32,000 nt of DNA from Candidatus Heimdallarchaeota archaeon B3_Heim (lineage in GTDB: Archaea; Asgardarchaeota; Heimdallarchaeia; Hodarchaeales; Hodarchaeaceae). The stretch lies in contig NJBF01000012.1 of NCBI GenBank assembly GCA_003144275.1, positions 1 through 32,000 of the forward strand, written 5' to 3'. Shown piece by piece: positions 17,415-26,577 of this stretch (positions are counted from its first letter, which is position 1; each line of letters opens with the position of its first letter). The translations under genes and the position numbers were made by a program. Under the pieces are notes generated by a model that saw nothing but the letters and a program-made list of their open reading frames with translations, did not search any database and was not told the origin of the DNA.

Positions 17415-20400
17415 ATGATTTTTAGTATTTCGATATTTAGCTTAGGTAATCTTCCGTCTAGCCATCACACTGCTCCTAAAAATTCCGTGAATATTCTAAT
17501 TCTTTTAAAAAATGATGACTATGATAATAAGAGAAATAGGATGGAATTTAAACCAGTTTCTACCGAACTCAAAAATCTCCGACTTCAGCAACAATCGATC
17601 CCATCTTTTGGAGAAGAGCTGTATTCGATAAATGATACATACGGAATCACAACCTCAATGCAGTTTTTCCCAATTGCATTCTCTCCAAATGGATCTATTC
17701 TTGCCTCTATTAATGATAATCTATCCATCAGCTTATGGAATATCTCCTCTAATACAAAAATTAAAGATATTGGATTTCATTCTGCTCCTTTTGATTTTAT
17801 TGTATTTTCACCTGATGGTTCATTAATCGCTTCAGGGGGCGAATCTCCTGATTATTCTATAAAGTTATGGAATGTCTCTTCAGGAAATTTAGTAACAACA
17901 CTAACTGGTCATTCTAAGCCGGTAAAATCGGTAGATTTCTCTTCAAACGGTCTACTTCTTGCCTCAGGTGGAAGAGATAATAATCTAAAACTATGGAATA
18001 TAATGACAGGAGAAGTAAAAACAATTTCAGATGAGGGAAATTGGATTAATTCGATAGCTTTTTCTCCTACTGAACCAATTTTAGCAGCAGCTAATTCGAA
18101 CTCCGATATTACTGTATGGGAATTTACAAGTGGTACCCTACCGTTAAATGGAACAAAAATTGCTACCTTGAGTAACCACACACAAGCTGTCTATTCTCTG
18201 GATTTCTCTCCCAACGGACAAGTATTAGTTTCGGGTAGTAAAGATAAAACAATAAGACTTTGGGATATAACCTTATTAAAAGAATCTAGAACGTATACAC
18301 AAGAAATTATGTATACTTCATCAGAAATTAAATCAGTAGCTATGTCGGTAGATGGAACAACGTTTGCCTCAAGTTTCGAGGATCCATTAGAAGGACAATC
18401 CATCGTGAAATTATGGAATCGAACCTTTAGTCCTTTCCAACCTATAAATGCTAATTTATCAAGTCATCTGGATCAGATTCGATCTATAGTTTTCTCCCCT
18501 GATGCCTCGATTTTGGCCTCTAGTAGCTGGGATCGCTCTATCAAGATTTGGAATGTGATTCAAATTTCTAATGACCTTGATAATGATGGAATGGACGATA
18601 ATTGGGAGTCACTACATGGTCTCAATTCTACAGATTATTGGGACAAATTTGCGGATCTTGATCAAGATGGATTAACAAACAGAATGGAATTTTATTATAA
18701 TTTAAATGTAAGTAACAGGGATTCAGATGGCGATTCTCTCCCCGATGGCTGGGAATTTCTTTATACCCTTAATAATTCCAAGAATGATGCGAATTCTGAT
18801 TTTGATGAGGATGGCTTAACCAATTTTCAAGAGTATGAGAATGGAACTAATCCCATGAATCCGTTTGATGTATTTCTAGATCATGATGGTGACAACATGT
18901 CCACTGGTTGGGAAGCTTATTACGGTTTAGATCCCTTTAATCCTCAAGATGCTCAAATAGACCATGATTTGGATGGAATTCCAGATCTCTGGGAAGCTTA
19001 TTACAGATTAAATCCTATTGACTCTGAAGATGCACTCTTAGACAAGGACAAGGATGGAATGGATAATTTATGGGAACACCAGATGGGATTAGATCCTAGA
19101 AATAATAGTGATGCCTCTCTTGATAAGGATGGAGATAACCTCTTAAATCTGGAAGAATTTGATTTCAATTCATCTGCAATCTTATTGGATACTGATGGAG
19201 ACGGTATGAATGATTTTTATGAATATTCAAATGGATTTGATCCTCGGGATAAGTTTGACATTTATCAAGACTTTGATGGGGATGAGATGACGAATGGATG
19301 GGAAGCTTCTTATGGACTAGATCCCTTAAATTCCTCTGATGCTGAAGAAGATAATGATGGAGATGGAATACCCAATTTATATGAAGCCAATTATGGTTTG
19401 AATCCTATAGATCCTAAAGATGGAGTCATGGATCATGATGATGATGGAATGACGAATATTTGGGAACATCTTATGGGATTAGATCCTAGAAATAATAGTG
19501 ATGCCTCTCTTGATATGGATGGAGATAACCTCTCAAATTTGGAAGAATTTAATTTCACTTCATCTGCAATTCTTTTTGATTCTGATTTTGATGGCATGGA
19601 TGACTATTACGAGTCTCAAATGGGATTAGATCCAAATGAGGATGATTCCAATTTAGACAAAGACAATGATAGCATGCCAAATATTTGGGAATACAAAAAT
19701 TCTCTTAATGCAAATTTCTATAATGACAGTAAAATCGATTCTGATGGGGATGGAATTATTAATGTTGATGAATTCAACGAAGGGACCGATCCTAATAATT
19801 TTTGGAGTTTTCCATTGATTAGTTTTAGCCGAGTTCATTTACTAACAACATTATTTCTTGTTGTAGCTGGAGTGACTTTTTTTTCATTTTATATGTTCTT
19901 CCAAACTCAAAGACGTAATTTAATCGAAAAATCAATGGCTCCAGACTATCCTACTGCCCAATTGATCCTATCTTCAGGCTACAAGATATATCCTGAGTTG
20001 GTCCAATCGAAAAATGAGGCCATAGAAAAACTCCGTAAAGGACAGATACAATATCATCGAGGAAAGTTCCTTCAAGCAATTCAGTCATATGAACAAGGAT
20101 TGGCAGAGTTTGAACGCATTAAAAATGATCGATTCATTGCGGAATCGGTTTACCTAATTGCATGTAGTCAAAAGGAAATTTCACTTTTAGCTAAGGAAAG
20201 CTCTTTCTTAAAGCGATTTCCATCAACGATCCCTATTGGATCGAAAATTCATGGATTTGACCTTATGAATAAAGCGTTAGTAGCTGAACAGTCTCATAAT
20301 TGGGGAGCTGCAAGAAATTACTGGATAGCGGCGCAAAATACTTTTGATTTAAACCTGGAGTATCATACACAATGTCAAGGTGCGGTACTGGAATTAGATT

Positions 20401-20789
20401 TTCATTCTATACTAACAAATTCAGAGGATATAGATGAGAATCTATTCCTACAGAAGTTAGTTGAATGGATAGATCATTGTAAAGAAAAAAACTTATTTAC
20501 ACAACTTGCTCAAGGATATCTGTTACATGCAAGGTATACTTTTTCAAAATATGAGGTTGGTGAGGTTGAACAGTGGTATGACATGTGTATCTTGGTTTCA
20601 CGTGAAAATGGTTTGGTTAAGTATCTTAATTTGGCTCAAAATGGGAAAAAAAATCTGGAAAAATACAGAAAAAGAATTTCAGACTTACTGCAGGTAAAGC
20701 AAAGTTTAACTCCTGAACAACAAAAGGATCTATTCCGTGAATACATGCAAAAAGCACTAGAGACTATGGAAAATGATCAAATGGATTGA
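17415..20789 (+). CDS. Receptor-like membrane protein: WD40 propeller + DxDxDG (TSP3-like Ca-binding) stalk + TM + TPR-like domain
   Basis: Seven WD repeats (about 17660-18560), 16 DxDxD(G/N/S/E) repeats (about 18570-19806), TM HLLTTLFLVVAGVTFFSFYMFF (about 19835-19900), TPR-like LRKGQIQYHRGKFLQAIQSYEQG. The true start is uncertain. Confidence 0.85.
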   Translation: MIFSISIFSLGNLPSSHHTAPKNSVNILILLKNDDYDNKRNRMEFKPVSTELKNLRLQQQSIPSFGEELYSINDTYGITTSMQFFPIAFSPNGSILASINDNLSISLWNISSNTKIKDIGFHSAPFDFIVFSPDGSLIASGGESPDYSIKLWNVSSGNLVTTLTGHSKPVKSVDFSSNGLLLASGGRDNNLKLWNIMTGEVKTISDEGNWINSIAFSPTEPILAAANSNSDITVWEFTSGTLPLNGTKIATLSNHTQAVYSLDFSPNGQVLVSGSKDKTIRLWDITLLKESRTYTQEIMYTSSEIKSVAMSVDGTTFASSFEDPLEGQSIVKLWNRTFSPFQPINANLSSHLDQIRSIVFSPDASILASSSWDRSIKIWNVIQISNDLDNDGMDDNWESLHGLNSTDYWDKFADLDQDGLTNRMEFYYNLNVSNRDSDGDSLPDGWEFLYTLNNSKNDANSDFDEDGLTNFQEYENGTNPMNPFDVFLDHDGDNMSTGWEAYYGLDPFNPQDAQIDHDLDGIPDLWEAYYRLNPIDSEDALLDKDKDGMDNLWEHQMGLDPRNNSDASLDKDGDNLLNLEEFDFNSSAILLDTDGDGMNDFYEYSNGFDPRDKFDIYQDFDGDEMTNGWEASYGLDPLNSSDAEEDNDGDGIPNLYEANYGLNPIDPKDGVMDHDDDGMTNIWEHLMGLDPRNNSDASLDMDGDNLSNLEEFNFTSSAILFDSDFDGMDDYYESQMGLDPNEDDSNLDKDNDSMPNIWEYKNSLNANFYNDSKIDSDGDGIINVDEFNEGTDPNNFWSFPLISFSRVHLLTTLFLVVAGVTFFSFYMFFQTQRRNLIEKSMAPDYPTAQLILSSGYKIYPELVQSKNEAIEKLRKGQIQYHRGKFLQAIQSYEQGLAEFERIKNDRFIAESVYLIACSQKEISLLAKESSFLKRFPSTIPIGSKIHGFDLMNKALVAEQSHNWGAARNYWIAAQNTFDLNLEYHTQCQGAVLELDFHSILTNSEDIDENLFLQKLVEWIDHCKEKNLFTQLAQGYLLHARYTFSKYEVGEVEQWYDMCILVSRENGLVKYLNLAQNGKKNLEKYRKRISDLLQVKQSLTPEQQKDLFREYMQKALETMENDQMD
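18879..19658 (+). repeat. Intragenic tandem duplication, two 390-bp (130-aa) units
   Basis: Units 18879-19268 and 19269-19658; 43 identical nt at 19083-19125 and 19473-19515, with high similarity around them. Confidence 0.85.
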
Positions 20790-20900: not shown

Positions 20901-22643
20901 TTATGTTATTTTCCGTCTTTTTACATAAAAAGCTAAGGATACCATCGTGAACATAATGAGTTCCAATGGAATAAAAGACGCCTGGTTTGAATCTGTGTCA
21001 GTAGTAGAAGGTTCTGAAGTGGTTGTAGTAGAAGATTCAGGAGTAAAATCGATGGTAGAATTACTGAATTTTGTTACAAACAGTGATTTTACTGTCCCAT
21101 ATTCTGAAACTAATGTATGATTACTTGTTGGTAAACCTCCATTTGTATATCCCGTTATTATGATATCATTATCATCTAAAGTGATTTCGAATGCTCCATC
21201 ATAGCCAGGTCCACCAAAAAATGATGAATATAACAGGTCAGAACCATCAGCAGCTAAAACACTTACGAATGCATCATCATAATAATTATCTGGAGGGGTA
21301 TTATCTAGTGTATACATTGGTTTCACAGGAAAATCACTGGAATACGTGTGTCCAGTTATGTAAATATTATCATTTTCATCTAATACTATGTCCCGACAGA
21401 ATTCATAGCTAATACTTCCACCAACGTAAGTTGAGAATAGAATACTTGATCCATCTGCAGAAATTTTAGTAACGAAAATATCAGCGAGAATATTTTCCCA
21501 AAATCCACCTTGAAAATTTGGATTATATGAATTCGCGGTAACAGGGAAATCACTTGACCCAGTATGGCCTGCAATTATGACATTATCTGCACTGTCTATA
21601 GCAAGTGCATTAATATATTCTCCTCCAGTTCCTCCAAGATAAGTCGAATATAATAAATCAGAACCATCAGCAGAGAGTTTGCTCAAAGTTAATTCGGCAC
21701 CTTTTAAATCTTCTCCGGGTAGAGATCCTATTCCGCCATTAGATGTTGTATTCAAGGCATCAGGCGTAACTGGATAGTTATTTGAGCTAGTAGTTCCACC
21801 AATATAGATATTTCCAGCACTATCGAGATCAATCTTGGGATTCATATCCCACTGACTTCCACCAATGAATGTTGAAAATTCTAATGTTGATCCATCAGAA
21901 GACAAACAGGCAACAAAGAGGTCTTCATGTCCTCCATGTGTTCTGTTATATGCGCCAAGCGTTGTTGGAAAATCACTCGATTCAGTATTCCCTGCTAAGT
22001 AAATTCTGTCAGAACTATCAACTCGAATATTTATGATAGAGTCTTGGCCACTTCCACCAATCAAAGTGGAAAAGAGAAGTTCCGATCCATCGGCAGAAAG
22101 TTTCGTGATGACGGCATCAAAATCCCCACCATTATATATTCGGTCATAAGCCCCAACGGTTGTTGGAAATTCGATAGAGGAGGTATAACTACCAAGAATA
22201 ACATTGTCATTGCTATCAAGGGCTATACGGACAATGCCATCACCAAAATTTCCTTGTGTTCCTCCTATAAATGTGGAAAAGATCAGTTCGGATCCATCAG
22301 GAGAAAATCTTGCAACAAAGATGTCGCTATCACTATCGCTTTTTGTCCGATTAAAGGCATTAGCTGTGGTCGGAAAATAAGAAGTAGACGTCCAACCTGC
22401 GATAAAGATGCTATTATCACTTCCGATAGCAGTCGAAAAGCTCTCATCACCAAAGATACGAGCTCCAATATACGCGGTAAAATTTACTGCTAGGTTAAGA
22501 CTTTCTATAGATTGTGTTTTTTGAACTTTTCCAAGACTTAACTCACTATGTGAATTATTCATTATTCCAACTTCGAGATCACTGATTAATGTCATATTAA
22601 AAATCAATAATGCCGAAGCGAGTAAAAAATATTTACTTTTCAT
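20901..22643 (-). CDS. SBBP-repeat beta-propeller surface protein with Ser/Thr linker and C-terminal TM anchor
   Basis: Signal peptide MKSKYFLLASALLIF; repeats (F/Y)ST(F/Y/L)(I/L/V)GG...D...DSxxNIYIxGxTxSxDFP; STTTTSEPSTT linker; TM followed by KRRK. Confidence 0.85.
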   Translation of the reverse strand: MKSKYFLLASALLIFNMTLISDLEVGIMNNSHSELSLGKVQKTQSIESLNLAVNFTAYIGARIFGDESFSTAIGSDNSIFIAGWTSTSYFPTTANAFNRTKSDSDSDIFVARFSPDGSELIFSTFIGGTQGNFGDGIVRIALDSNDNVILGSYTSSIEFPTTVGAYDRIYNGGDFDAVITKLSADGSELLFSTLIGGSGQDSIINIRVDSSDRIYLAGNTESSDFPTTLGAYNRTHGGHEDLFVACLSSDGSTLEFSTFIGGSQWDMNPKIDLDSAGNIYIGGTTSSNNYPVTPDALNTTSNGGIGSLPGEDLKGAELTLSKLSADGSDLLYSTYLGGTGGEYINALAIDSADNVIIAGHTGSSDFPVTANSYNPNFQGGFWENILADIFVTKISADGSSILFSTYVGGSISYEFCRDIVLDENDNIYITGHTYSSDFPVKPMYTLDNTPPDNYYDDAFVSVLAADGSDLLYSSFFGGPGYDGAFEITLDDNDIIITGYTNGGLPTSNHTLVSEYGTVKSLFVTKFSNSTIDFTPESSTTTTSEPSTTDTDSNQASFIPLELIMFTMVSLAFYVKRRKIT

Positions 22644-23149
22644 TCTGTATTACCTCTTTTATGTGTGATACATTAAATTGATCACATGAGGATGAATTTC
22701 TTCATAATTTAACTATAATTGCTCAATATCTGTTGAGTTAAATATAATTGATATACTTAGGGAAGTAGCTTATATCAATAGTAATAGCAATTATACGAGT
22801 ATCCAAACTTATTATAGATTTCACTTCTATTTCGTAAATTACCAATTTCCATAGTAATATTTGGTATTGATCCTTTAGAACAATGAATAATTCGTCTAAT
22901 TCATTGATATTAACCTCTAGTTACTCTCATTATATAGAGAAGTATCCAGCTGGTCAATTTTTATTGAGTAAAACATTAAATTCATATTAGCTTTCAATTT
23001 TTTATGAAAGATCAATGTGTACTAAATAATAATTAACGTTTTTCTATCAAGAAAGACGGTTTATCCAAAATAGATCGAAATTCAGGACAAAGATTTTTTA
23101 GTTACGATTCATGAATTCAAATTTATAATGAATATTTGGAGGATTTAGA

Positions 23150-23992
23150 TTGAAATCACTGGCAATATTATCACACAAAGGTGGAGTTGGTAAAACAATT
23201 TTAGCAGTAAATTTAGCCATTCATTTAGCAGCAGAGGGTAAAAATATTTGCCTAATCGATAGTGATTTTCACGGACCTTCAATCTTAACGTTCTTTACTC
23301 CCAAATCGGAGATCCATTGGATTAACAGTTTTCTAACAGGTGAATCTTCTCTCGAGGAATGTTTACAGGATTTAAGTAACGATTTAGCCTTATCAGGAAA
23401 ATTGCTAGTTGCATTTGCTGATCCCACACCAGAATCAATCCAGAATGTAATCCGTCTTGATCAAAACACTTCAATGAAAATGCTCCATTATCTCATGAAA
23501 ATGAAGAGTATGTTACGAGAGGAGCCATATTCCATCGATTACCTAATTCTTGATTGTTCACCTGGGACAGGGTTTTCAACCATCAATGTAATGGTCATTA
23601 CAGAAATTATACTCTTTATGGTTAAAGTAACAAATGCCGATATTATTGGAACCTCGCACATGATTGAAGGATTACATAAACAACTTAAAAGTAGAACAAA
23701 AATTATTGCTAATCAAATTCCTTCAGACTTTTTAAATGACCAAACTAAAAAAGAACATTTTCAAAAATTGATTGAGAATCTGCTTAAAAAAGATCTTGGT
23801 GACAAAACTGTAGATTTCATGGGATGGATACCGAATGATCTGGACTTATACAAAACCGAATTCGAAACAGCAATAAAAACTCTAGAAGGAAACCCTACAA
23901 GAAGAATGATTCACACACTAGACAAACCAGACCATATCATTTCTAAGATTATCAAAGAATTAGCTAATAACCTATTCGGAGACAACAACTGA
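23150..23992 (+). CDS. MinD/ParA-family (SIMIBI) ATPase
   Basis: TTG start after GGAGG; deviant Walker A SHKGGVGKT; CLIDSDFHGPS; YLILDCSPG. Confidence 0.9.
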   Translation: MKSLAILSHKGGVGKTILAVNLAIHLAAEGKNICLIDSDFHGPSILTFFTPKSEIHWINSFLTGESSLEECLQDLSNDLALSGKLLVAFADPTPESIQNVIRLDQNTSMKMLHYLMKMKSMLREEPYSIDYLILDCSPGTGFSTINVMVITEIILFMVKVTNADIIGTSHMIEGLHKQLKSRTKIIANQIPSDFLNDQTKKEHFQKLIENLLKKDLGDKTVDFMGWIPNDLDLYKTEFETAIKTLEGNPTRRMIHTLDKPDHIISKIIKELANNLFGDNN

Positions 23993-24628
23993 ATGATTGC
24001 TTATGCAGTTTATGTCATTTCAATGGATGGAAGACCACTTGTTTCGGAAACTTTTCAGTCCGCTGAGACTATTCCCAATGAAATGTTGTTAGCAGGATTA
24101 ATGACTGCTCTTCAAGGGGTCGCTACTGAATTAAGTCAAGGTAAATCTGGGTTAAAAAGTATTAAAATTGATAATTTATCCTATCATTTCAAATCATTTG
24201 GCCAATACCAAATTGTTTTAGTAACAGATTTACCGGAGACTCCAGAAAATGTGCTCCACCGATTGGGTATACAATTCATGAAAGATTTTGGAGAACAGCT
24301 GATCAAAGATTCACTCGATCTTAACACTTTCCAACCATTTAGTGATACAATTAATGAAATCGTGAGAGAAGAGCTAACTATTGATAATTCTAAGATGATT
24401 ATCCCTACCAAAAAATTTAGTTCTGGCGAATTGTATCAGCTACCATCTCACTTACAACCCACTGCACTAGCAATGATAGCTTTAAAGGAGGGGAATGTCG
24501 AAGAAATAGCCTCTGAAAGTGAAAAGAGCATCGAAGATACAGTTGACAATTTAGAATCTCTTCAAGATATGGGATTAATTGGTAAAAAAGTCACTAACGA
24601 TCACGTGAGTTATTTTTGCTCATTTTAA
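23993..24628 (+). CDS. Longin/roadblock-like domain + C-terminal winged-HTH protein
   Basis: ATG directly abuts the MinD TGA. N-terminal VYVISMDGRPL...MLLAGLMTAL...YQIVLVTD pattern resembles longin domains; C-terminal EEIASESEKSIEDTVDNLESLQDMGLI resembles a wHTH. Confidence 0.6.
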   Translation: MIAYAVYVISMDGRPLVSETFQSAETIPNEMLLAGLMTALQGVATELSQGKSGLKSIKIDNLSYHFKSFGQYQIVLVTDLPETPENVLHRLGIQFMKDFGEQLIKDSLDLNTFQPFSDTINEIVREELTIDNSKMIIPTKKFSSGELYQLPSHLQPTALAMIALKEGNVEEIASESEKSIEDTVDNLESLQDMGLIGKKVTNDHVSYFCSF

Positions 24629-24633
24629 AAACC

Positions 24634-26577
24634 TCAGAATGAATCCTGCCCATATTGCTTGTAATTTGCTACTACATTCTTGATAAAAGTCCAATTCAAC
24701 AATTGGATGTTATCTAGATTCTTTGACCCAATTTTTAGTTCAAAATTTTCCCCTAAATTCTTGACATCGTCAGGTTCAAGTTTTAAATGTATCAATACTA
24801 ATTTACCCTCATTATTCAATTCGAAGCGTGTATTAAGGCAAAGCCAATGAAAAAAATCTATTGATTTGTCAATATTTACTTGATTTATCGATTCCCAAAT
24901 CGTGTATACAGATGGAACAAGGGTCTCGAATTTTCGTTTAAGAAAAGAATAGATATCTGACGATCTTGGATCAAGAATGATCTTGCATACTTCTGTAGCC
25001 CATTCTTGGTGATAAAAGGAAATTATTTCAAGTTTTTTAAGGCTACTAGATGAACTCTCATACTTTATAGGGGGTAATAATCTAACGAAAGGATTTGTCC
25101 AATGAGCTACTGTGGATTTAACTTTATTTTTCCAATCTCCTTCAGGATATAATTCAGATAATTCTTGTTTAAACGAATTTTCAAGAAATAAGATGAGTTT
25201 GAGTTGTAAGATGTTTTTTTCACCGCGTAATGAATACAATAGTGAAATTAATGAATAAAGTACAAGCGGGAATGTATTATCAATGACAGATTTTTGTAAA
25301 TTTGCCAAGGCGACTTTCAGAAAACCCAAAGAAACAACCATTGCCCAAGGTGACTCGAATGTTTTGTAGGGTTCAGAAGGGCGATTAGTCCATGGAATAA
25401 TGGTAACAAGAACATCGAGTCCTACCCATTTTACCCATTCAGAAAAATATGGGCGCCAATCATCCCAAATGCTGTTTAAATCGAATTGAAGAGCAACTTC
25501 AAAAGGTTGTATTTCCAGTTGTAATTTTTCTACTAATGCGAGAAATTCTTGCTTTCCTGGTGCGGATTGTGGGGAACTCTGTATCACTGACTGTGTGAAT
25601 GCAATGAGAACTGACCATGATTGTGTCCCTGCATCAGTGACCATTTTCTGGATTTTTTCAAGAATTTCGAATGGGACCAAGTGCACATCTTCAATTATAA
25701 CAAGCCATCTAGGGGTTTCTCTCTCTTTTGACATATTACTTGATAAAATAGAAAATAGGGAATCCCACTCTACCTCACCCATATCTTTGGGATTCTCAAT
25801 AAATAAAACTGGTGTCTGGAATAAACGCACCCACCAACTCGCAATATATAATAATAACCGACTCTTCCCCATCCCTGTTGTAGCAAATAGTCCTGCTTTT
25901 CCGCGAGTCTTTAGAACTTCTTGCATCGGTTGAATCAAAGATTTGAGAGGGGGTACGGACAACGATGCATCCATTAAGCAAAAATCTTGTAATCCCCGTG
26001 TTCCGTATGCTAATTTTAATAGACGATCTTCTAACCATTTTCTAGAGTAATCTTCCTCCAATAATGCATCTAATGGTTTAATAAATTGTTTGATCCATTC
26101 ACGAGGTGAAATTGACTGTTCTATTGGTTCTGGTAAAGGAAGAAATATGTTTTCTTCCATCATTGGTGTATTTTTTCCTACAAAAAAATTGAATGATCGT
26201 ATACTAGGTGGTAATTCATCTGGTCTTTTAGGAAGAGAAATTGGTTCAGACAATAGGCCACTGGGAATGCGTACTTCTGAACCGACAACTGATCCTGCTC
26301 CAGAAAGTTGAATATAATTTATTTGATCCATTTCATAGGCTTCTATGAACTTTAGGGTAGTAATTCCGAATTCAGTAAGTTCGTAATATGATTCCTTCTT
26401 CTGTATTAAGTTTGATTCAACTAGTTTTTTAATATGAAAACTAAATTTATTACTTCTAATACCCTCAAAGCATGCTAATAATTCCGAAAAGGACTTTCTA
26501 CTGAAATTAAGCTGCTTTACAACTTCAAAGCGAATTTCTTGACTAAGAATATCAAAAACTTTGAGAGTTTCTTTCAT
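24634..26577 (-). CDS. N-terminal winged-HTH + P-loop (STAND/AAA-like) ATPase protein
   Basis: ArsR-like FDILSQEIRFEVV...SFSELL...SNKFSFHIKKLVESNLI; Walker A ATTGMGKS; Walker B LVIIED; long helical C-terminus. Confidence 0.7.
   Translation of the reverse strand: MKETLKVFDILSQEIRFEVVKQLNFSRKSFSELLACFEGIRSNKFSFHIKKLVESNLIQKKESYYELTEFGITTLKFIEAYEMDQINYIQLSGAGSVVGSEVRIPSGLLSEPISLPKRPDELPPSIRSFNFFVGKNTPMMEENIFLPLPEPIEQSISPREWIKQFIKPLDALLEEDYSRKWLEDRLLKLAYGTRGLQDFCLMDASLSVPPLKSLIQPMQEVLKTRGKAGLFATTGMGKSRLLLYIASWWVRLFQTPVLFIENPKDMGEVEWDSLFSILSSNMSKERETPRWLVIIEDVHLVPFEILEKIQKMVTDAGTQSWSVLIAFTQSVIQSSPQSAPGKQEFLALVEKLQLEIQPFEVALQFDLNSIWDDWRPYFSEWVKWVGLDVLVTIIPWTNRPSEPYKTFESPWAMVVSLGFLKVALANLQKSVIDNTFPLVLYSLISLLYSLRGEKNILQLKLILFLENSFKQELSELYPEGDWKNKVKSTVAHWTNPFVRLLPPIKYESSSSSLKKLEIISFYHQEWATEVCKIILDPRSSDIYSFLKRKFETLVPSVYTIWESINQVNIDKSIDFFHWLCLNTRFELNNEGKLVLIHLKLEPDDVKNLGENFELKIGSKNLDNIQLLNWTFIKNVVANYKQYGQDSF

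Follow-up and report, generated by a model that had tools for sequence, protein, structure and literature searches.

What does a longin domain do when the gene beside it encodes a ParA/MinD-family ATPase? In eukaryotes, longin domains are hallmark regulators of membrane traffic; that they have expanded in Asgard archaea serves as evidence in models of eukaryogenesis. To our knowledge, they have so far been tied to small Ras/Arf-like GTPases. The question is raised by a two-gene locus of Candidatus Heimdallarchaeota archaeon B3_Heim (assembly GCA_003144275.1, contig NJBF01000012.1), located in the first 32,000 nucleotides of the contig, the whole stretch analysed here (the window), where an ATPase gene abuts the gene of a partner protein with an N-terminal longin domain and a C-terminal winged helix-turn-helix (wHTH). 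An earlier note, made from the sequence alone, had read the pair as a positioning or partition system in which a DNA-binding longin protein replaces ParB or MinE and regulates the ATPase. We find that the pair is conserved among Asgard archaea and propose, as the reading that seems on balance probable, that it forms a co-transcribed, Asgard-specific two-component switch made of a ParA/MinD-family ATPase and a dedicated longin/linker/wHTH adaptor. The observations and the structural reading of the earlier note stood, whereas its functional reading, of regulation and partition, was not supported.

Open reading frame coordinates confirmed the layout previously described, a KGGVGKT ATPase whose TGA stop codon directly precedes the ATG of the downstream partner gene (Table 1). 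The ATPase begins with MKSLAILSHKGGVGKT and ends with ...IIKELANNLFGDNN; both genes are intact and the catalytic motifs of the ATPase are complete. Only six codons of open frame lie upstream of its TTG, and this start is consistent with those of orthologues, which begin with MKS, LKS or MES. Neither TATA-like nor GGAGG-like signals were found between the two genes, which points to likely co-transcription and translational coupling. The abutting genes and the recurrent adjacency described below support the coupling of the pair in an operon.

An exhaustive search of representative sequences with the partner returned 110 clusters, most of ~200–215 aa. We also searched 400 genomes of the phylum for the partner and inspected the neighbours at ~30 loci. 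Full-length matches came from the window's own genus, from another family of the same class and from several further families, while matches to the N-terminal domain only belonged to other architectures. The ~30 loci come from several Asgard genera and families; in most of them the ATPase gene directly precedes that of the partner on the same strand, and adjacency and order persist where partner identity is only 22–29%. The exceptions were contig ends, tandem extra partners (ATPase–partner–partner in L014, L015 and L017), orphan copies (L041, and at 3.57 Mb in the complete Hodarchaeales genome G066) and one rearranged locus (L029). Across five genomes searched with both profiles, all 7 of the 7 close-clade ATPases had an adjacent partner. 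Genomes hold 2–5 modules, and surplus or orphan partners also occur: G066 has a partner–ATPase–partner arrangement and two further partner copies, and the window's genome carries a second, paralogous pair on contig C35 (ATPase 50% and partner 47% identical, with an ATGA overlap). The arrangement exceeds chance. Maximum-likelihood trees of 17 ATPases and their 17 partners agreed in every well-supported clade, including the split into the two paralogue groups; across Asgard archaea, therefore, the two genes have been passed on and duplicated together. Conservation of the pair, which had been named beforehand as one of the points on which the proposal would stand or fall, thus held. Apparent recoding at three loci (L025–L027, 'TAA inside') was rejected, as the alignments ran past the true stop.

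The AlphaFold2 (AF2) model of the partner (predicted local distance difference test (pLDDT) 81.6, alignment of 23 homologues) places residues 1–127 in a five-stranded antiparallel sheet sandwiched by helices, with the topology β-β-α-β-β-β-α-α (DSSP: strands 3–10, 15–20, 56–59, 62–69 and 72–78; helices 30–47, 85–104 and 110–127). This is the topology of longin domains, and residues 1–129 of the model superimpose closely on solved ones. The top structural matches were longin domains without exception, including Trs23 (score 14.2, r.m.s.d. 2.4 Å over 121 residues), VAMP7 (13.8), Sec22b (13.6), Fuzzy (12.8), the SRX domain of the signal recognition particle receptor subunit SR-alpha (11.4) and the longin domain of the lokiarchaeal Roadblock-Longin protein (8yqg; 11.2); MglB scored 10.5. 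The helix that precedes the first strand in Roadblock/LC7 domains such as MglB (α-β-β-α-β-β-β) is absent from the partner, so the domain is predicted to be a longin and not a roadblock, and of the earlier description 'longin/roadblock-like' only the first half survives. At the sequence level, the partner matched Fuz_longin_1 (PF19036) with 17.4 bits (E 0.0054), under the cut-off of 26.1, and its relatives matched Pfam longin families with E-values down to 2.7e-5, still below threshold. In the linker, P138 is invariant and K141 and F142 are at least 90% conserved (pLDDT 65–73). The C-terminal domain is modelled as helices 144–149, 155–164, 169–176 and 180–192 followed by a β-hairpin wing (196–210). 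Its sequence matches are weak in the partner itself (ArsR/CzrA/TrmB; TrmB E 0.04 in Pfam) and clearer in relatives (HTH_20 2e-8, TrmB 9e-6). Model and structural matches together confirm the combination of longin fold and wHTH that had been suspected. No match to ParB, MinE or ribbon-helix-helix (RHH) adaptors was found for the partner in Pfam, NCBIfam or PDB sequences.

Assignment of the ATPase to its family is supported by Pfam, motifs and fold alike. It scored above cut-off against PF10609 (2.3e-18), PF13614 (4.6e-18) and PF01656 (1.3e-12), the families matched being ParA/NUBPL, AAA_31 and CbiA. It carries the hallmarks of the ParA/MinD superfamily, namely KGGxGK[ST] with the signature lysine, a DxD sensor, a DhhhhD Walker B and a degenerate N-x-x-D, in the form of S-H-K10-GGVG-K15-T16, D37-S-D39-FHGPS, DYLILD (D130 to D135) followed by SPG, and N162-A-D164. 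These motifs are invariant or almost so among 22 aligned orthologues, with G11, G12, G14 and K15 invariant, and KGGxGK was present in 97 of the 97 homologues in which the motif was found. In the AF2 model (pLDDT 90.1), the nearest solved structures by Foldseek are FlhG (4rz3, TMq 0.75), FleN and MinD, followed by Soj/ParA (TMq 0.73–0.75 for FleN and FlhG, and 0.68–0.75 for MinD and FlhG/FleN overall). Every homologue above 42% identity with a named source was labelled Asgard (Hodarchaeales, Heimdallarchaeota, Kariarchaeaceae and one Odinarchaeota), and annotations were of generic ParA/MinD proteins only.

Within the superfamily, the marks of ParA proper (PriB1), an asparagine before Walker A and a glutamine two residues past DxD, were not found in the ATPase. 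A serine (Ser8) stands two residues ahead of the motif and its signature lysine in 97/97 homologues, and the sensor, DxDFHGPS, has no glutamine, so that by the criteria of Li et al. (10.64898/2026.10.19.760177) the sequence classifies as PriB2-like, on the MinD/FlhG side. It is not a MinD equivalog, with scores well below cut-off for minD_arch (TIGR01969, 38.5 versus 201.75 bits) and minD_bact (TIGR01968, 38.8 versus 212.9 bits). The chain ends four residues after its last helix (263–276), which matches the final helix of the core; neither the alignment nor the AF2 model therefore contains the C-terminal amphipathic membrane-targeting helix of MinD and FlhG. We accordingly rejected a MinD-type membrane switch, and the membrane role that 'MinD-like' might imply finds no support.

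The fold also bears on whether the ATPase could be an Mrp/NBP35/ApbC-type carrier of iron–sulfur or other metal clusters, with an unrelated gene next door. ApbC, Mrp and NBP35 are the top sequence matches in PDB and NCBIfam over residues 4–50, and the motifs DxDxxGPS and PGTG resemble those of Mrp/NBP35. These matches are, however, confined to the first 50 residues, while the whole-fold neighbours are FlhG, FleN and MinD; Mrp-type equivalog scores fall far under their cut-offs (NF041136, 65.5 versus 450 bits; NF008669, 47.4 versus 348 bits), and the strict coupling with the longin-wHTH gene would go unexplained. The cluster-ligating CxxC is absent from the window's ATPase and from 97/97 homologues, and this identity is therefore effectively refuted.

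We propose that the ATPase would cycle between an ATP-bound dimer and an ADP-bound monomer, and that the adaptor, composed of longin domain, short basic linker and wHTH, would bind it and couple this cycle to a target picked by two variable surfaces, the recognition helix of the wHTH and helix α3 of the longin domain. The longin domain may act as a dimerisation and NTPase-facing platform, as such domains do elsewhere. The occurrence of several adaptor paralogues per ATPase suggests that one motor serves several targets. The role would probably be to organise or sequester a specific cellular target, which could be a locus on DNA or an assembly of proteins; it seems less likely that the pair is a classical chromosome partition system or a membrane Min system.

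Several points weigh against this proposal, beginning with the question of which domain contacts the ATPase. At one locus (L038; G071:C19:29337-32567), an ATPase 53% identical to that of the window is preceded, in reverse gene order, by a 397-aa leucine-rich repeat (LRR) protein that has no longin domain and ends in the same linker–wHTH module (41% identity over residues 138–210, P-x-[KR]-K motif included). The module is also found repeatedly in LRR-wHTH and multi-wHTH proteins of the database (P0102, P0105 and P0079). Distant ATPase paralogues on three other contigs of the window's genome (C70, C69 and C36) each lie beside a small protein with an apparent C-terminal wHTH and no longin; these neighbours are of the helix-wHTH or RHH-wHTH type, with Pfam support weak or absent and two read by eye only, as is the wHTH-like C-terminus of the 171-aa helical protein upstream of the C36 paralogue. 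The wHTH module is therefore the common denominator and the N-terminal domain exchangeable, which suggests that the wHTH, rather than the longin domain, is the ATPase-coupled part. The role of ATPase regulator that had been given to the longin domain is left unsupported by these swaps. Within the partner, mean pairwise identity is highest in the longin core (0.66) and lowest in the recognition helix (0.36) and helix α3 (0.39). ATPase divergence correlates more tightly with that of the longin domain (r 0.94, partial 0.81) than with that of the wHTH (r 0.86, partial 0.44), which would favour coupling through the longin domain but is no more than suggestive, as the sequences share ancestry and are non-independent, and a short, fast-evolving wHTH has a lower r for that reason alone. 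Complex prediction for ATPase and partner scored 0.23/0.18 against a mark of 0.32, which weighs neither for nor against their binding. Overall, we consider it unlikely that in Asgard archaea a MinD/FlhG-type SIMIBI ATPase has a bona fide longin for its cognate regulator or platform. Some ~400–500-aa matches (P0079, P0105 and P0102) had been considered as ATPase–partner fusions; this was rejected when Pfam showed them to be the multi-wHTH or LRR-wHTH proteins mentioned above.

The nature of the target weighs in the same direction. The wHTH of the window's copy is acidic (net charge −8, pI 4.3), with a net charge of −5 in its recognition helix, EKSIEDTVDNLESLQDM. Across the family, the charge of this domain ranges from −11 to +6, and the sole conserved basic element is the G-x-I-G-K-K wing. 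With an acidic wHTH and a hypervariable recognition helix, DNA binding is unproven, contrary to the DNA-binding partner that had been proposed, and DNA may not be the target. The hypervariable helix would fit diversified target specificity, and the target could be a protein. The biological role given above is, in turn, a guess from the anatomy of the module.

The same data bear on the model of a ParABS- or MinDE-like partition or positioning system put forward in the earlier note, in which the longin-wHTH protein would be a centromere-binding adaptor whose longin domain stimulates the ATPase. In its favour, the two genes are kept together as an operon with the ATPase in front, an order shared by many par loci; divergence in the ATPase closely follows that in the longin domain; and longin and roadblock domains regulate NTPases elsewhere (MglB, TRAPP and Mon1–Ccz1). 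In some bacteria, moreover, a ParA displaces MglA beside MglB (10.64898/2026.10.19.760177). Against it stand the acidic wHTH and recognition helix, the orthologous ATPase that has an LRR-wHTH partner without longin, and the absence of the membrane-targeting helix. The partner begins directly at strand β1 and lacks the free basic N-terminal peptide of ParB, MinE or McdB type. Several modules with surplus or orphan adaptors per genome, rather than one per replicon, in varied metabolic contexts, give no support to chromosome partition, and a pattern scan of IMG/VR viral contigs with the partner alignment found no relative (plasmids were not searched). We regard this model as distinctly unlikely; the replacement of ParB or MinE by a longin regulator in DNA partition is weakened by the domain swap and the charge data, which neither show nor exclude it.

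A full-text literature search found one directly relevant source, a preprint by Li, Burroughs and Aravind (bioRxiv, October 2026; 10.64898/2026.10.19.760177). It describes 'ParA-wHTH systems', most of them archaeal, that couple a ParA to at least one fast-evolving wHTH gene, the wHTH being sometimes fused to a V4R or a 'Profilin-like' domain of the profilin-longin superfamily; its authors hypothesise a coating of invading DNA by such systems and regard them as candidate anti-mobile-element systems, and its text names no Asgard example. Applied to the window, the pair would be such an immune module, with the wHTH sensing invading DNA, the ParA multimerising on this DNA to coat it and the profilin/longin-like domain enlarging the assembly through multimerisation. 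The architecture matches, from the fast-evolving wHTH to the optional profilin-longin-like domain. Multiple partners per ATPase, the hypervariable recognition helix and the 2–5 modules per genome would fit, and the five module ATPases are the window genome's best matches to the KGGVGR model NF047398. A DEAD/MZB helicase gene adjoins the array in G066, and the gene converging on the pair (Table 1), whose product gave feature matches to nSTAND3/nSTAND5 at 0.90–0.91, is conserved in the window's orthologue group. NTPases of the nSTAND type are typical of conflict systems.

Other evidence speaks against an immune role. The hallmark of the preprint's ConB2 clade, an arginine in place of the second Walker A lysine (KGGxGR; 10.64898/2026.10.19.760177), is missing from 97/97 homologues, which have KGGxGK, and NF047398 (AAA_KGGVGR) scored 54 bits against a cut-off of 90. 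The pair has no effector domain and its wHTH is acidic here. PADLOC gave no meaningful match for either protein; for the ATPase, similarity to the candidate models PDC-M28B and PDC-S73 did not go beyond the level of the P-loop. The C35 paralogue has metabolic neighbours (genes for corrinoid methyltransferase, saccharopine dehydrogenase and glycosidase), as does another locus, L004 (radical SAM and CoA-ligase), and the entire neighbourhood is syntenic at an orthologous locus with 72% identity. The nSTAND-like gene, although kept beside the pair in L040 (58% identity) and in L044/L012 (50% identity) even with a different upstream flank, is absent from the other paralogue groups among the loci compared; it is possibly a third component of the window's orthologue group only. 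An immune role is thus doubtful in our view, although the evidence leaves the choice between a housekeeping organiser and an immune module undecided.

FleN and FlhG being the closest solved structures, a transcriptional switch like that of FleN and FleQ also has to be weighed, with the wHTH as a transcription factor under ATP-dependent control by the ATPase and no positioning involved. ArsR/TrmB/MarR-type wHTH proteins are the commonest archaeal regulators, the partner shows weak ArsR/TrmB matches, and a variable recognition helix could give each paralogue its own regulon. No conserved target genes adjoin the pairs, however, and neighbourhoods vary between paralogue groups; the recognition helix is acidic here, and the match to FleN reflects a shared fold and not a shared partner, because FleQ is an AAA+ protein. 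This makes such a switch very improbable.

The two-component switch that we favour would matter in several ways. A longin-wHTH protein with its ATPase offers a simple two-protein system for asking about the biochemistry of archaeal longins, and the module lends itself to testing the recent proposal that ParA-wHTH modules serve in immunity. Were the longin domain to regulate the SIMIBI ATPase, longin–NTPase partnership would extend beyond Ras-like GTPases, a longin–SIMIBI link would already have been present in the archaeal lineage closest to eukaryotes, and the pair would be a prokaryotic counterpart of the longin–SIMIBI association in the eukaryotic signal recognition particle receptor. If the longin merely adds oligomerisation to a wHTH adaptor, the module would be one more ParA-adaptor variant.

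Table 1. The ATPase–partner module and its immediate surroundings in the window.
Feature	Position	Strand	Details
ATPase gene	23150..23992	+	TTG start, 280 aa
ParA/MinD-family deviant Walker A ATPase	23150..23992	+	FlhG/FleN/MinD-like fold, Asgard-specific clade
Deviant Walker A KGGVGKT	23177..23197	+	Signature Lys10, P-loop Lys15/Thr16
TGA/ATG junction	23990..23995	+	Stop TGA 23990-23992 abuts ATG 23993-23995
Partner gene	23993..24628	+	ATG start, 211 aa
Longin domain of partner	23993..24379	+	aa 1-129
Inter-domain linker	24380..24421	+	aa 130-143, conserved I-x-P-T-K-K-F motif
C-terminal wHTH and stop codon	24422..24628	+	aa 144-211
Shine-Dalgarno-like GGAGG	23138..23142	+	7 nt before TTG; read in sequence
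TATA-box-like TTTATAAT, candidate archaeal promoter element	23122..23129	+	~20 nt before TTG; sequence only
Convergent neighbour, DUF7347/ArsR-like wHTH and nSTAND-like P-loop NTPase	24634..26577	-	647 aa; PF24038 3.5e-8

Around the module, the stop codon of the convergent neighbour lies 5 nt from that of the partner. Upstream, the window encodes a 1,124-aa protein with WD40 repeats, a transmembrane segment and a helical C-terminal region (17415-20789, + strand), whose many aspartate-rich repeats look calcium-binding by eye, and a 580-aa SBBP beta-propeller-repeat surface protein (20901-22643, − strand); both genes are retained upstream of the pair in L040. In G066, the array (L057, G066:C1:926000-945000) runs partner – ATPase – partner – 2,438-aa surface protein (SBBP/NosD) – tetratricopeptide repeat (TPR) protein – partner and directly follows a DEAD/Helicase_C/MZB (MrfA-type) helicase gene; G066 thus combines a single close-clade ATPase with four full-length partner genes. 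In the distant ParA-like paralogue on contig C36 (L010/L062:7387-8703), a TGA in frame separates the P-loop region from the remainder of the gene, which suggests a pseudogene.

Related longin domains also occur in other Asgard architectures. Proteins of ~300 aa carry one fused to an Arf/Roc/Ras-like GTPase (family f20 genomes; a 376-member cluster; P0134), and the same longin lineage is therefore also joined covalently to TRAFAC GTPases. Contig C61 of the window's genome (~26.7–27.8 kb; L003:1228-2328) encodes a 366-aa protein with a histone fold at its N terminus (CBFD_NFYB_HMF, 33.4 bits, above cut-off), followed by a domain homologous to the longin of the partner (E 7.9e-6) and then by a long charged tail with a lysine-rich end; frames of ~365–390 aa with the same longin match are found in many genomes of the genus.

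Comparison with known systems places the module as follows. Like the ParA-wHTH systems of the ConB2 clade, it has a ParA-type ATPase and a fast-evolving wHTH, is found mainly in archaea, includes profilin-longin partners in some cases and consists of two core components without a classical effector. It differs in its Walker A motif (KGGVGK[TS]), its sub-threshold NF047398 score, a longin domain where ConB2 has an 'elongated N-terminal helix', the ATPase gene in first position, and contexts that are metabolic and syntenic and not island-like, a comparison made with the text of the preprint only. With MinD/MinE and FlhG (FleN) it shares the closest fold, a PriB2-type Walker A region with a serine before the signature lysine and, presumably, a dimer switch that depends on ATP and on a partner; in contrast to them, the ATPase has no terminal membrane helix and the partner is unrelated to MinE, MinC, FlhF and FleQ. 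ParABS, SegAB and AspA-ParBA are likewise two-gene operons of an ATPase and an adaptor with a nucleic-acid-binding-type domain, but here the ATPase lacks the asparagine before Walker A and DxDxQ, the adaptor is neither a ParB/HTH protein nor an RHH protein like SegB, several modules and surplus adaptors coexist and the wHTH is acidic. The clients of MglA–MglB, TRAPP, Mon1–Ccz1, Fuzzy–Inturned and SRX are Ras-like (TRAFAC) GTPases, whereas the neighbour here is a SIMIBI ATPase, which the partner would contact. The analogy with SR-alpha that had been drawn is a loose one, since the protein bound by SRX is Arf-like SR-beta rather than the SIMIBI NG domain. In other Asgard longin proteins (Roadblock-Longin 8yqg, the longin-Arf/Ras proteins and the histone-fold-longin proteins), the longin goes with small GTPases, roadblock or histone folds; only the window's family joins it to a linker-wHTH and adjoins a ParA-like ATPase. 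The module is thus best described as an Asgard-specific, longin-bearing variant of the known switches built from a ParA and a wHTH adaptor.

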